Of a DNA stretch of 64,000 nucleotides, positions 46,286 through 51,675 are shown piece after piece. Both the position numbers and the translations under genes were made by a program. Origin of the DNA: Vulcanimicrobiota bacterium (GTDB lineage Bacteria > Vulcanimicrobiota > Vulcanimicrobiia > Eremiobacterales > Eremiobacteraceae); the NCBI GenBank assembly GCA_963812135.1, contig CAWETU010000001.1, positions 1,824,001-1,888,000 on the forward strand. Reading direction: 5' to 3'. Each line of letters opens with the position of its first letter. Positions within the stretch are counted from its first letter, which is position 1. Under the pieces are notes generated by a model, which searched no databases, was not told the DNA's origin, and saw only the letters and a list, made by a program, of their open reading frames with translations.

Positions 46286-46933
46286 CTAATAGAGCTCGAC
46301 TTCGCTGAGATTCTTTTCGATCTTGCGCTTGACGCGCTGTAGTGCGTTGTCGATCGACTTGACGTGGCGGTTGAGATCGCGCGCCATCTCTTGGTACGAC
46401 TTGCCCTCGAGATAGCTCAGCAGCACCTGCGACTCGAGGTCGCTCAGGTTCTCCTGGATCCGCTCCTTGATGTCTTCCGAAACCTCTTGGTTGATGACCA
46501 GTTCTTCCGGATCCGACATCTTGGCGCTCGCCATGACGTCAAGCAGCGTCCGCTCGCTGTCCTCGTCGTAGATCGGCTTGTTCAGCGAGATGTATTGGTT
46601 GAGCGGGATGTGCTTCTGCCGCGTGGCCGTCTTGATGGCCGTGATGATCTGACGCGTGATGCACAGCTCCGCGAATGCCCGAAAAGACGACAGTTTGTCG
46701 GCCCGGAAGTCACGGACGGCCTTGTACAGGCCGATCATGCCTTCTTGGATGATATCTTCGCGATCCGCACCGATCAGGAAGTAGCTCTTGGCCTTGATCC
46801 GGACGAAGTTCTTGTACTTGTTGAGCAGAAACTCCATGGCCAGATTGTCGCCGCACTTGGCCGCATTGACGAGTTCTTCGTCCGCTCGCTCGCTGTAGTC
46901 CAGGGTGTCTTCCGTTTGATGAAGAGCTCCCAA
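46286..46933 (-). CDS. sigH: Sigma-H-type RNA polymerase sigma factor
   Basis: YFLIGADREDIIQEGMIGLYKA, TATRQKHIPLN, KSIDNALQRVKRK. Confidence 0.95.
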   Translation of the reverse strand: MGALHQTEDTLDYSERADEELVNAAKCGDNLAMEFLLNKYKNFVRIKAKSYFLIGADREDIIQEGMIGLYKAVRDFRADKLSSFRAFAELCITRQIITAIKTATRQKHIPLNQYISLNKPIYDEDSERTLLDVMASAKMSDPEELVINQEVSEDIKERIQENLSDLESQVLLSYLEGKSYQEMARDLNRHVKSIDNALQRVKRKIEKNLSEVELY

Positions 46934-47057: not shown

Positions 47058-47810
47058 TCACAAGCCGGCCGCGCTACGCTGACGTAATACCTCATACAAC
47101 ACGACCGCAGTCGCCGCTGCCGCGTTGAGCGATGCGACCTTGCCGAGCATCGGGATCGAGACCAAAAAGTCGCAACGCTCAGACACCAGGCGCGATAAGC
47201 CTTTGCCCTCGCTGCCGACCACCAGGGTGCACTTCCCCTTGAAGTCCGCCTGCGTGTACGGGCGCGCCTCGGGGCGGTTGGAGAGCCCGCTTACCCAATG
47301 GCCGTCGGCCTTGAGGTCTTCCAGCACCCGCACCAAATTCGGGACAACAGCCACTGGCAGGTGGGACGCAGCCCCGGCAGCCGCCCGCCTGGTCGCTGCC
47401 GTCACCCCCGCCGCGCGGCGATCGGGAATCACGAGGCCATGGGCCCCCGCGCTTTCGGCGGCGCGCATGATCGCCCCCAAGTTCTGCGGGTCTTCGATAT
47501 GATCGGCTACCACGATCAGCGCGTCGTTCTTGCCGGCGATGCGCCGGCGCAGCTGCGCCCACTCTGCCGGCTCGAACGCGGCGACCGTCGCCGCGACGTG
47601 CTGATGGCGGACGTTTCCAAAACGCCTGAAAAAGCTCTCCGGTTCGATCTTGATGGCGATACCGCGGTGCTTGGCCTCGTTCACGATCTCTTTGAGCGCC
47701 GGGTCATTTTGACGGTGCTGCGCGATCGCGATCCGTTTCACCGACTCGCCGCCGGCAAGCGCTTCCGACACGGAGTGGATGCCGACGATCGTCTCGTCAG
47801 CTTCCGCCAT
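47058..47810 (-). CDS. rlmB: 23S rRNA Gm2251 methyltransferase
   Basis: DPQNLGAI.R, GSEG.G, IPM.G..SLN. Confidence 0.92.
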   Translation of the reverse strand: MAEADETIVGIHSVSEALAGGESVKRIAIAQHRQNDPALKEIVNEAKHRGIAIKIEPESFFRRFGNVRHQHVAATVAAFEPAEWAQLRRRIAGKNDALIVVADHIEDPQNLGAIMRAAESAGAHGLVIPDRRAAGVTAATRRAAAGAASHLPVAVVPNLVRVLEDLKADGHWVSGLSNRPEARPYTQADFKGKCTLVVGSEGKGLSRLVSERCDFLVSIPMLGKVASLNAAAATAVVLYEVLRQRSAAGL

Positions 47811-49272
47811 CGACGCTCCACTGCGAGCCTTGCGCGGTGTCTTTCACCGCGATGCCCGCGCGCGCGAGCGCATCGCGCAGCGTATCGGATTTCTTCCAAT
47901 CCTTGGCGAGGCGCGCTTTGTCGCGCAGCGCGACGACTTTCTCCACAAGCTCGATGTCCGGAGCGTCTCGCTCGCCCGCGATGATCGAGAGCGCGATGCG
48001 CGCGGCGTGATTCAACTTGACCTGTGAGGATTGCGGTGCGACCCCGGCGCGCTCGGCGTCCGGCGGCAAGCCCAGCCGCTCTAAAGACTGTTCGGCCGTC
48101 GCGACGACGTGCGCCGCGCGCGCCGCGTCCGCACCCGCTTTAAGCGCGCCTTTGATGTATGTCTGCAGCCATCCGACGGCGCCCGCGGTGTTGAGGTCGT
48201 CGTCCAAGAACGCGTTGAACTCCTCAATATCTGTAGCGGTCGAATTTATTCCGGCGGCCGACGACGCCGGTTTTGCATTCTCGCGCAGCTTTTCGAGATC
48301 CACGTACAATCCGCGCAGACCCTTGCCCGCGGCTTCGATCGATTCGGTCGTGAAGTTGGACGGCTTGCGATAACCGGTCTGCAAGAAGAGGTAGCGGATC
48401 ACCGCGGCGGGATAGCGGTCGAGCATCTGCGCGAGCGGGATGAAGTTGCCGAGCGATTTGCTCATCTTCTGCCCGTCGACGTTGAGCAAACCGGCGTGCA
48501 CCCAGAAATTGGCCATCGGGTGTTTACCGGTGAACGTTTCGGTCTGCGCGACTTCGTTCTCGTGATGCGGGAAGATCAGGTCAGCGGCACCGCCATGGAT
48601 GTCGATCTGATCGCCGAGATAATCGCGAACCATCGCCGAGCACTCGACATGCCACCCCGGACGGCCCGGACCCCAGGGGCTCGGCCAACTCGGCTCGCCG
48701 GGTTTGGCTTTTTTCCACAGCGCGAAGTCGAGCCGGCCGCGTTTGTCCTCGCGCACGGCCATGCGCACGCCCGCGCGCAGCTCTTCGATGCTCTGATTGC
48801 TGAGCTCGCCGTAACGCGGAAACACGCCCTCGTCGACCGCGAAGTAGACGCCATCGCCCGATTCGTACGCCGCGCCCTTGGCGACCAGCCCAGCGATCAG
48901 TTCTATAATGGAAGCGATTTCTTGCGTCGCGCGCGGTTCTCGGTCAGGCGGCGTCAGTCCAAGACGCTTGGCGCTCGCCTCATATTCGGCGAGATAACGC
49001 GTGGCGACGTCGTCCCATGGCACGCCTTCGGTCTTCGCGCGATCGATGATGCGATCGTCGATGTCGGTGACGTTCTGCACGTACTCGACGTTGTAACCCC
49101 GCGCTTTGAGGTGGCGGCGCAGGACGTCGAACGTCAAGAACGTGCGTGCGTGACCGAGATGCGGATGAAAGCTCGGCGTCATGCCGCAGACATAGACCGT
49201 CACCCGCTTCGGATCGAGCGGCTGGAACTCATCGAGAGAACGGGTCCGGCTATTGTAGAGTCGGACTGCCAT
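47797..49272 (-). CDS. cysS: Cysteine--tRNA ligase
   Basis: YVCG.T, HLGH, DFALWK, GWHVEC, KMSKS. Confidence 0.97.
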   Translation of the reverse strand: MAVRLYNSRTRSLDEFQPLDPKRVTVYVCGMTPSFHPHLGHARTFLTFDVLRRHLKARGYNVEYVQNVTDIDDRIIDRAKTEGVPWDDVATRYLAEYEASAKRLGLTPPDREPRATQEIASIIELIAGLVAKGAAYESGDGVYFAVDEGVFPRYGELSNQSIEELRAGVRMAVREDKRGRLDFALWKKAKPGEPSWPSPWGPGRPGWHVECSAMVRDYLGDQIDIHGGAADLIFPHHENEVAQTETFTGKHPMANFWVHAGLLNVDGQKMSKSLGNFIPLAQMLDRYPAAVIRYLFLQTGYRKPSNFTTESIEAAGKGLRGLYVDLEKLRENAKPASSAAGINSTATDIEEFNAFLDDDLNTAGAVGWLQTYIKGALKAGADAARAAHVVATAEQSLERLGLPPDAERAGVAPQSSQVKLNHAARIALSIIAGERDAPDIELVEKVVALRDKARLAKDWKKSDTLRDALARAGIAVKDTAQGSQWSVDGGS

Positions 49273-49927
49273 CCGGCTCTTCGAGTTTCCGTATCTGTGC
49301 TTCGAGCGCTTCGACGCGTTGCTGGAGCGCCGCGATCGCGTCCGCTTGCGGGTCCGGCATGTCGACCCGCGGGATCACCGACTCGACTTGCTTGCCATCC
49401 CGATAGATCACGCGTCCGGGCACGCCGACGACGGTGGAATTCGGCGGCACCGACTTGACGACGACTGCGCCCGCGGCGATCTTTGATCCGGCGCCGACGG
49501 TGATCGCTCCGAGCACTGCTGCGCCGGCGCCGACGACGACGTTGTCTTCGAGCGTCGGGTGGCGCTTGCCGCGTTGCAGCGTTGTGCCGCCGAGCGTGAC
49601 GCCTTGGTACAGCGTGCAGTTCCTACCGATCTCCGACGTCTCTCCCAAGACGACGCCCATGCCGTGATCGATGAACAGGCCCGAGCCGATCTCAGCACCA
49701 GGGTGGATCTCGATGCCGGTGAGGAAGCGCGACCAGTTCGACAAGACCCGAGGGATCACGGGTAGTCCAAGCCGATGCAGCGGATGGACGATCACCCGAT
49801 GCCACACGATCGCGTGGAAGCCGGGATACGCGAGCAGCACTTCGAGCCCATTGCGCGCCGCCGGGTCGCGTTCGAAGCACGCCCGCCAGTCGAGGCGGAT
49901 TTGCCGGAATATCGAGTCTCGTTGCAT
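49250..49927 (-). CDS. cysE: Serine O-acetyltransferase
   Basis: RDPAA, GIEIHPGA, IDHG.G, KRHPT. Confidence 0.97.
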   Translation of the reverse strand: MQRDSIFRQIRLDWRACFERDPAARNGLEVLLAYPGFHAIVWHRVIVHPLHRLGLPVIPRVLSNWSRFLTGIEIHPGAEIGSGLFIDHGMGVVLGETSEIGRNCTLYQGVTLGGTTLQRGKRHPTLEDNVVVGAGAAVLGAITVGAGSKIAAGAVVVKSVPPNSTVVGVPGRVIYRDGKQVESVIPRVDMPDPQADAIAALQQRVEALEAQIRKLEEPDGSPTLQ

Positions 49928-50022
49928 GGTGTCGTCCTGCTTGTGGCTCGGCCCGTTACGGCCGGCTATTTCTCACGTGCGCGCAGCGGGCGCGCGACCG
50001 GGCTTGTGGCGCGAAGCGCCGG

Positions 50023-50112
50023 TCAACAACAGCAGGACAAGGCGATGGCCGGGCGGGTGCAGGCGGTGCGAACGTCGGCGGTGGCCATGATGCCCGTGAG
50101 TTCGCTCGCCAT
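50023..50112 (-). CDS. Putative cysE leader peptide MASELTGIMATADVRTACTRPAIALSCCC
   Basis: GGAGG SD, ATG 50112, ends TGC TGT TGT TGA upstream of cysE. Confidence 0.75.
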   Translation of the reverse strand: MASELTGIMATADVRTACTRPAIALSCCC

Positions 50113-50163
50113 GCTTGGCCGCCCTCCGGCTTCACCGACCGGTGCAGGGCCGAACCGCTTCTT

Positions 50164-51675
50164 TCAGCCGGTTTGCGACAGCGCCGAACGCAGCCGAGAT
50201 GCCAGCCGGGCAGGGCCGAGCAACGGCAAGAGCACGGGGAGCTCGATGCCGTGCTCCTGTCCTGTTGCCGCGATCCGTATCGGTCTGAAAAGCGCGCGTC
50301 CTTTGACGCCGTGCTTGGCGCCGAGCGCAGCGAGCGCTTCCTTCGATAACGCGTTGCGGAGGGCTGCGCGATCCTTGCAACCTGCCGCTATGGCAGCGAT
50401 CTCTTCAACAAGCGCGCGGGACGTCGGATCTGCAAGCGCGTCTTGTGTGCCGGGCTCGAGGCGCATTTCATCTTCTAACACTTGCAACGCTAGTGCTGGA
50501 ACCTGATCGAGCGTCTCAACGTGATCGGTCATCGCGTCGGCGAATAACCCGCGCCAGAGCGGATCCTTGATATCCGACGAAGCGGCAACCGCCGGATCGC
50601 GCGCCGCCCATGAAGCGAATAACTCGGCGCGCTCATCGCGCGGCAGCGCGCGGATATAGTGCGCGTTGAACCAGCGCAGCTTCGCGTGATCGAACACCGC
50701 GGGACTCTTGGTCACGCGGTCCAGCGAGAAGGTCTCGATGAGCTCCTCGAGCGTGAAGAACTCCCGGTCATCGCCCGGCGACCAGCCGAGCAGCGCGAGA
50801 TAGTTGATGAGCGCCGCAGGCAGATATCCCTGTTCGCGATACTCCGCGACCGATGTGGCTCCATGACGCTTCGACAGTTTCTGATGGTCGGGCGCGAGGA
50901 TCATCGAGACGTGTGCGAACAGGGGCAACGGAAGCTCGAGCGCTTCGTAGAGCGCCACTTGGCGCGGCGTGTTCGGCAGATGCTCGTCGGCGCGGATCAC
51001 GTGCGTGATCGCCATCTCGGCGTCGTCGACGACTACCGCGAAGTTGTAGGCGGCGACGCCATCTGATTTCAAGATGACGAAGTCGCCGATCGATCCTGCC
51101 GGGAAATGCACCGCGCCGCGCACGAGATCTTCGACGTACACGTCACGCTGCGGCATCAAGAAGCGGATCGCCGGCTTGCGGCCTTCCGCTTCGAGCGCAA
51201 GGCGCTGTTCGCGGGTGAGATCGCGGCATTTGCCGGAATACTTCGGCGTTTGCCCAAGCCGCTCGGCGGCGCGACGCTCGGCTTCGAGCTCCTCGGGCGT
51301 GCAGTAGCACGGATACGCCTGCTCGATCTCGAGCAAACGCGCGACGGCGAGCCCGTAGAGGTCGATCCGATCGGTCTGCCGATACGGGCCGTACTCTCCT
51401 CCGACATCCGTGCCTTCATCCCACGTCAGGCCGAGCCAGCGCATGTCCTCTTGAATGGCGCGTTCGGATTCAAGCGTCGAGCGGCCGGTGTCGGTGTCTT
51501 CGGAGCGCAGCACGAGCACGCCGTGGTTGCGTCTCGCGAAGAGATAATTGAAGAGCGCCGTGCGAGCGCCGCCGACGTGCAGCGATCCGGTTGGCGCGGG
51601 GGCGAAGCGGACTCTCACGGCGCCTGAGCTCGGCTCAGGCGCGACACCCGAGCTGCGCTCGGGTTCTACGTTCAT
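50164..51675 (-). CDS. gltX: Glutamate--tRNA ligase
   Basis: RFAP.PTG.LHVGGARTAL, EDTD, KLSKRHG; ATGA overlap with ispF. Confidence 0.96.
   Translation of the reverse strand: MNVEPERSSGVAPEPSSGAVRVRFAPAPTGSLHVGGARTALFNYLFARRNHGVLVLRSEDTDTGRSTLESERAIQEDMRWLGLTWDEGTDVGGEYGPYRQTDRIDLYGLAVARLLEIEQAYPCYCTPEELEAERRAAERLGQTPKYSGKCRDLTREQRLALEAEGRKPAIRFLMPQRDVYVEDLVRGAVHFPAGSIGDFVILKSDGVAAYNFAVVVDDAEMAITHVIRADEHLPNTPRQVALYEALELPLPLFAHVSMILAPDHQKLSKRHGATSVAEYREQGYLPAALINYLALLGWSPGDDREFFTLEELIETFSLDRVTKSPAVFDHAKLRWFNAHYIRALPRDERAELFASWAARDPAVAASSDIKDPLWRGLFADAMTDHVETLDQVPALALQVLEDEMRLEPGTQDALADPTSRALVEEIAAIAAGCKDRAALRNALSKEALAALGAKHGVKGRALFRPIRIAATGQEHGIELPVLLPLLGPARLASRLRSALSQTG

Follow-up and report, generated by a model that had tools for sequence, protein, structure and literature searches.

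In Bacillota, the junction between gltX and cysE has a Cys T-box and is listed as gltX-(T-box)-cysE-cysS (PMC4342826, Table 5). The same junction occurs on the minus strand of the window analysed here (the whole stretch of 64,000 nt) from a Vulcanimicrobiota bacterium with a genome of 2.79 Mb, and the original prediction was that a ribosome stalled on the cysteine codons of a short leader ORF frees the cysE ribosome-binding site (RBS), making a ribosome-based cysteine sensor in place of the T-box. This reading of the leader as a stall-dependent sensor is supported by three lines of evidence detailed below: a Cys run is found in relatives, no T-box is found, and the arms of the proposed helix covary. 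We therefore consider it likely, on comparative sequence evidence, that the leader is a cysteine-sensing translational attenuator resembling mycobacterial Ms5788A. The leader is preceded by ispD-ispF-gltX and followed by cysE-cysS-rlmB-sigH (Table 1); the gltX ATG overlaps the ispF stop, and gltX, cysE, cysS, rlmB and sigH all score over their NCBIfam cut-offs in a profile search. At three loci of the same genus, g1 (L002, L004 and L006), gltX and the leader are set apart by ORFs of some 110-340 codons that are not related to one another, and this junction therefore accepts insertions.

Table 1. Features of the leader and its neighbouring genes, in positions of the window, listed in the direction of transcription
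Feature	Position	Strand	Remark
gltX, glutamate-tRNA ligase, upstream gene	50164..51675	-	TIGR00464, 504.9 bits (cut-off 289.95)
-35-like box of predicted SigH-type promoter, contains GGAGG	50122..50128	-	inferred; fixed distance to leader ATG conserved
Upstream in-frame ATG (start first proposed), strain-specific	50110..50112	-	missing from 5 other full-sequence g1 leaders
-10-like box GCGAAC of predicted SigH-type promoter	50100..50105	-	
Conserved leader ORF, 21 codons, predicted near-leaderless, ends Ser-Cys-Cys-Cys-TGA	50023..50088	-	
Anti-SD arm, Leu-Ser-Cys codons	50031..50040	-	
Three Cys codons TGC TGT TGT plus TGA, predicted sensing tract	50023..50034	-	
Hairpin from leader stop codon, predicted family-wide at that position, no U-tract here	49996..50024	-	
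Second GC-rich hairpin, kept in genus g1	49979..49995	-	
Third hairpin, variable	49950..49963	-	
3' arm with cysE Shine-Dalgarno-like AGGA, ending 7 nt ahead of ATG	49932..49941	-	
cysE, serine O-acetyltransferase, predicted direct target	49250..49927	-	TIGR01172, 226.4 bits (cut-off 210.65)
cysS, cysteine-tRNA ligase, start overlaps cysE end	47797..49272	-	TIGR00435, 457.8 bits
rlmB, start overlaps cysS end	47058..47810	-	TIGR00186, 204.3 bits
sigH, candidate reader of leader promoter	46286..46933	-	TIGR02859, 341 bits (cut-off 294.8)

An Rfam search of the window matched only tRNAs and returned nothing credible in the spacer, no T-box was found in 61 genomes of relatives, and a T-box riboswitch (RF00230) as the leader was thus rejected, there being no covariance-model match to it in the window or in these relatives. 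As a positive control, a T-box was found just upstream of cysE in five of six Bacillota loci, which agrees with the published listing (PMC4342826, Table 5). A scan of the phylum found no cysE T-box in any member examined; with the best 15 candidates per genome considered, sub-cut-off T-box matches appeared in 3 of 140 genomes, all from a single distant family, where they precede a gene other than cysE. These T-box-like elements (L254-L256) score 81-86 bits against a cut-off of 93 and lie ahead of a gene that we take to be TrpB-like. The suggestion that the leader acts in place of a T-box is thus supported as regards position and logic only, since no member of the phylum examined gave a cysE T-box that could have been replaced.

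The leader ORF is present as claimed, a minus-strand ORF of 29 codons (50112-50023) ending TCC TGC TGT TGT TGA (Ser-Cys-Cys-Cys-stop), and the distance from its stop to the cysE ATG is, also as claimed, 95 nt. By contrast, the start at 50112, for which the GGAGG at 50127-50123 (10 nt ahead) had been taken as the Shine-Dalgarno (SD) sequence, is probably wrong, as ATG 50112 is not conserved in genus g1. ATG 50088, which has the GCGAAC box 12 nt ahead of it, is common to the leaders of this genus and is probably the real start, while GGAGG is more likely to be the -35 box of a SigH-type promoter than an SD. ATG 50112 could serve read-through transcripts from gltX in the host strain and, because the two ATGs share a frame, the correction leaves the sensing logic unaltered. 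Within the genome, (TGY)3-stop sites number ten, and this leader is the sole intergenic one, intergenic status being judged on gene calls from our own hexamer caller. The host genome has two other Cys-rich short ORFs, one of which precedes an aromatic-catabolism-like operon and overlaps the start of an opposite-strand gene. No CymR/Rrf2 repressor scores over cut-off in this genome.

The second finding is that the Cys run is a family trait. The best titled CysE match (70% identity), labelled Ca. Eremiobacteraceae, comes from a gltX-leader-cysE-cysS locus with a Cys-rich leader, and we examined all 32 genomes of this family (f1), taken as Eremiobacteraceae-level within the Eremiobacterota/Vulcanimicrobiota. 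Two contigs stop within the spacer, both retaining the 3' arm GCAGGAC, which leaves 30 complete spacers; in 27 of them, a Cys run precedes a stop 55-100 nt upstream of cysE, which is what the original prediction had called for in orthologous spacers. The run is missing in the other three complete spacers (genera g6 and g8), which are also without the GCAGGAC arm. The g8 loci L029, which is from an unpublished genome, and L030 still have the promoter-like element and a short uORF but neither the Cys run nor the SD arm, and are possibly decayed attenuators. A Cys-rich leader is found in all three f3 genomes, and three Cys near a stop in none of 46 cysE loci of family f2 (28 initial loci plus 18 top-scoring picks, one being a distant CysE paralogue). 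Unpublished genomes are included in these counts, namely G016 and G010 (leader present, with no complete g5 leader other than that of G010), G013 (which accounts for one of the two g8 losses), and G276 and G259 (both f2); without them, the counts are 25/27 for f1 and 0/44 for f2. A class-wide pattern search gave 12 matches in f1, all of them the cysE leader, and three in f2, all inside coding sequence. No leader was found at five loci from other classes of the phylum; among 79 further GTDB cysE loci, there was one with three Cys ahead of a stop, yet without a start codon; and a metagenome scan, which returned no close relatives, gave 80 loci, 70 of them with 250 nt or more of upstream sequence, none of which had three Cys before a stop. 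In a quick CysE tree (60 rows, quick search, single gene, after removal of fragments, of the paralogue and of 26 f2 rows), f3 groups with f2 (support 92) and away from f1 (support 99), which suggests that the leader was present at the root of the class and was then lost in f2. At the cysE loci L132 (titled NC10) and L240, both outside the phylum, an ORF with Cys-Cys-Arg-Ser at its end stops some 40 nt ahead of cysE and could be a weak leader or the end of a gene.

Comparison of these leaders provides evidence that the ORF is translated. Only the Cys tail is conserved, the N-terminal part being unconstrained, and leader length varies between 9 and 26 codons with the frame kept. The frame was tested by taking, whatever its frame, the first ATG that follows the promoter-like box, a choice blind to the Cys run; this ATG reads into the run at 25 of the 26 f1 loci having both box and run and at all three f3 loci, the sole f1 miss being an assembly whose cysE is also broken into pieces. 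Codon usage in the leaders departs from that of the genome: TGT accounts for 59/128 leader Cys codons vs 993/7251 genome-wide, and the Ser preceding the tail Cys is encoded by TCC in 24/25 cases vs 26/368. The final Cys codon is TGT in all 26 f1 leaders that end in Cys. Some family members have up to 11 Cys in the leader, as might be expected if the ORF encoded a functional, perhaps metal-binding, Cys-rich micro-peptide and the pairing described below were incidental. We find this extremely improbable, considering that a peptide of such variable length has only its tail conserved, that codon choice tracks pairing, and that the element always sits ahead of cysE.

The stop codon is invariant too, with TGA in 27/27 f1 leaders vs 46% genome-wide, which is explained in part by pairing in the base of the hairpin that follows. 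The same bias, together with the presence of selA in 31 of 32 family genomes and a called tRNA-Sec, is what would be seen if UGA and its hairpin were a selenocysteine-insertion signal and the leader a Cys/Sec sensor, a reading to which we give hardly any credence. In the apparent selenoprotein genes of the host itself, the UGA is followed at a greater distance by a stem whose loop begins with GG (the peroxiredoxin stem being identified by eye), whereas the leader hairpins begin at the stop and have variable loops. Moreover, neither the length of the read-through (0 to at least 50 aa) nor its frame is conserved, one leader has TGA-TAG, and in the f3 leaders Cys is not followed by UGA. SECIS-directed insertion at the leader was accordingly rejected, hairpin placement and frame being unlike the selenoprotein signals of the host. 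In that genome (G000), selA-selB is at C1:620232-623509 and tRNA-Sec at C1:612205-612298, and the genes with in-frame TGA are at C1:445689 (+) and C1:1282354 (+). From their motifs, we take these to be a formate dehydrogenase and a peroxiredoxin.

The correction of the start codon brings with it a predicted promoter. In 27 of 29 leaders, a two-box element consisting of AGG, 18-20 nt, GAA (or AAA), 11-14 nt and ATG is found; it persists whether inside or outside gltX, including in the run-less g8, and the boxes travel with the leader where 405-1079 nt part it from gltX. The leader boxes match C. difficile SigH promoters in Table 3 of PMC7438776, whose entries stop about 6-14 nt past GAA. SigH scores over cut-off in 59 of 61 genomes, with near-identical scores across the family. 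In 1442 upstream regions of the host genome, AGG[AG]-N-[AC]GAA peaks at spacings of 16-18 nt (34, 25 and 21 vs about 10), a peak with a weaker antisense counterpart (20, 13 and 13), and [AC]GAA peaks 9-12 nt ahead of start codons genome-wide, which suggests that many genes in this genome are expressed as near-leaderless mRNAs from SigH-type promoters. The leader transcript is likewise predicted to be near-leaderless, starting 0-3 nt ahead of ATG 50088. One RNA contig (depth 2, one mismatch, no loose end) ends at 50089, and a contig from another study spans 49977-50179, across the promoter and into gltX, representing read-through or DNA; both come from small shares of the RNA runs X1-X3, whose contigs, at depth 2-9, are too shallow for starts, strand or levels. 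The parallels with Bacillota SigH promoters (PMC7438776, as represented in its Table 3) are the AGG(A/G/T)-N16-18-(A/C)GAA architecture, the use of operon-internal promoters and an orthologous SigH over cut-off. The differences are the near-leaderless mRNA predicted here, the non-Bacillota phylum, and a SigH dependence that is in our case a prediction.

The helix on which the proposed switch depends was recovered. The leader tail UUGUCCUGCU (50040-50031) pairs with AGCAGGACGA (49941-49932) over 10 bp with one G-U, as claimed, in both the minimum free energy (MFE) and the centroid structures, where the helix encloses three hairpins, and a distance of 7 nt is the modal AGGA-to-start spacing in the host genome. 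Of the 27 f1 leaders, 23 have the TCCTG/CAGGA anchor, and GCAGGAC is found in 3 of 2651 start regions. RNAalifold on a MAFFT alignment returned five pairs, none with a two-sided change, as the helix register moves with the length of the Cys run, and pairs were therefore counted on the motif anchor in 22 rows (g3, g10 and f3 left out; one row with TTCTG), against a shuffle that ignores kinship. The covariation that had been anticipated is there at two flanking positions: +2 is Watson-Crick in 18/22 rows (shuffle mean 10.5), as C-G in g2, g5, g7 and g9 and as T-A in g1 and g4, and -2 is Watson-Crick in 14/22 (G-C, C-G or A-T; shuffle mean 6.5). It does not extend to -3 and +3, where pairing is at or below chance, and the changes represent few events, the C-G at +2 mapping to one weakly supported clade (support 82) whose members, as kin, are not independent.

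In folding predictions for 29 leaders, the probability that the RBS core is paired with the leader tail exceeds 0.5 in 22 and is 1.00 at this locus, the helix being weak or absent in the other seven, which include all three of f3. The whole spacer is not unusually stable compared with shuffles (z = -1.32). As a bare duplex, the pairing is not exceptional at this locus (p = 0.085 vs random start regions, 0.195 vs synonymous recoding), and the corresponding p values fall below 0.05 at only 8/30 and 10/30 loci. Refolding with the Cys codons masked, as had been proposed, gave the expected direction of change: a ribosome-sized mask on the first tail Cys brings the opening cost down by at least 2 kcal/mol in 21/29 leaders. 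Control masks do the same in 8/29 and 12/29. When the mask extends from the 5' end of the leader, the cost is down by at least 2 kcal/mol in 24/29 (control 12/29) and, at this locus, goes from 13.0 to 5.6, compared with 12.5 for a mask ending eight codons earlier. On the long read-through transcript, the anti-SD helix is not part of the MFE structure here, and the switch shrinks to 5.2 vs 4.3. A computed switch that is modest at several loci and often mimicked by control masks is compatible with a helix that only holds cysE translation steadily low, with no regulated sensing by the ORF. We judge this very unlikely because a static helix would need neither a Cys run that stays in frame with its start through many length changes nor the excess of TGT among leader Cys codons.

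The one competitor that deserves more weight, although we still regard it as unlikely, is that the leader does sense cysteine and acts mainly on transcription, the stop-codon hairpin and a pyrimidine-rich spacer leading to pausing and to Rho-dependent or weak intrinsic termination. The hairpin begins at the stop codon family-wide, Rho is present in the host, six of the 28 loci that were scored have at least five T in the 8 nt after the matched motif, and T-rich tails occur in some genera. There are also precedents, PMC1262725 proposing Rho-dependent control for actinobacterial Cys leaders and PMC8632094 describing a Cys uORF plus a terminator ahead of Rhodobacterales cysS. However, none of the six g1 loci, this one included, has a U-tract, a terminator scan finds no minus-strand terminator in the spacer, and a g1 spacer consisting almost entirely of hairpins would be a poor loading site for Rho. 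Termination also leaves the covariation with the cysE SD arm unexplained. A classical transcription attenuator of the trp/his type was rejected on the U-tract count in g1, weak tracts being found in some other genera.

We therefore return to translational attenuation, the dynamic steps of which we infer throughout. A SigH-type promoter would start transcription 0-3 nt ahead of ATG 50088, and read-through from gltX would add a longer transcript on which ATG 50112 would also be usable. When Cys-tRNA is ample, the ribosome would complete the 21 codons and depart, upon which the three inner hairpins would draw the ends together and the 10-bp helix would hide the cysE SD. When Cys-tRNA is scarce, the ribosome would dwell on the Cys codons and cover the anti-SD arm, allowing cysE to be translated. 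The overlapping cysS and rlmB genes would follow via translational coupling and Rho polarity, the latter invoked because Rho is present. The predicted outcome is that a shortage of Cys-tRNA raises both O-acetylserine and the amount of Cys-tRNA ligase.

The mechanism itself is already known; what is new for such a leader is the phylum and the cysE-cysS junction. Among mycobacterial polycysteine leaderless sORFs, which include Ms5788A and Rv2334A (before cysK1-cysE), Canestrari et al. (bioRxiv 10.1101/834739) report that the Ms5788A switch was shown by reporters and compensatory mutants. On that account, the two leaders have in common a short 5'-proximal ORF with a C-terminal Cys tract, a similar distance to the next gene (about 95 nt here, 97 nt for Ms5788A), pairing of the tract with the SD of that gene, an apparent lack of a terminator, and targets in cysteine supply. 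They differ in phylum and locus (gltX/cysE-cysS-rlmB here), in that a SigH-type promoter with a 0-3 nt leader is predicted here where a leaderless start has been mapped there, and in the helix, which is short (10 bp) and closes a multi-hairpin junction in our case. Furthermore, there is a single such locus in the host genome, unlike the mycobacterial ribulon, which is described there as multi-locus, and the origin of the leader studied here is presumably independent of the mycobacterial ones.

Three other systems invite comparison. With the Bacillota Cys T-box (RF00230), the leader shares the gene junction and, by inference, the input, which is the charging state of tRNA-Cys. It differs in relying, as predicted, on the ribosome for sensing and on translation initiation for output, instead of antitermination. 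The uORFC-8-2 motif of Rhodobacterales cysS, as outlined in PMC8632094, is alike in being a Cys-codon uORF predicted to control a cysteinyl-tRNA synthetase gene, but its two Cys codons are internal and it comes with an intrinsic terminator, where our leader has a terminal run and an anti-SD helix. Leader peptides of actinobacterial cys/cbs genes, known from comparative genomics (PMC1262725), likewise have Cys runs near the stop of a short ORF and no conserved terminator; that study reports no conserved helix and proposes Rho, in contrast to the covarying anti-SD helix found here. PMC13096801 and PMC13236596 contributed mycobacterial cases of poly-Cys leaders, and our literature search, whose coverage largely stopped short of subscription journals, brought up no description of such a leader from this phylum. 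Polycysteine translational attenuation, so far shown in mycobacteria, would with this leader reach a phylum that has hardly been cultured, as well as the core cysE-cysS operon, and a ribosome-based sensor would sit where Bacillota keep a Cys T-box, meaning that two devices would read one tRNA signal at one locus. The natural variants, with 9-26 codons, 2-11 Cys, three losses and compensatory pairs, represent ready-made test constructs.

A broader picture can be proposed, but it is tentative and we would not be surprised to see it fail. The leader may be a two-input gate in which a SigH-type, transition-phase-like promoter, giving a near-leaderless transcript, is combined with a poly-Cys sensor releasing cysE-cysS-rlmB. 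On this view, control by cysteine would have evolved independently three times at one ancient operon junction, as the T-box in Bacillota, as the leader at the base of this Eremiobacterota class, and as a candidate DNA operator in f2. In that family, which is without the leader, a TTGAC-N6-7-GGTTA motif lies just ahead of cysE in 19 of 46 loci (e.g., L033, L035-L039, L042, L047, L051, L070-L072 and L077), often with AACC upstream as an inverted repeat. The motif is absent from f1 and f3, and is a candidate operator or unusual promoter. As for the putative reader of the leader promoter, sigH has its own near-perfect sigma70-type promoter (11/12) at 47023-46995 on the minus strand, directly followed by a SigH-type element at 46990-46966, a tandem arrangement that is possibly autoregulatory.
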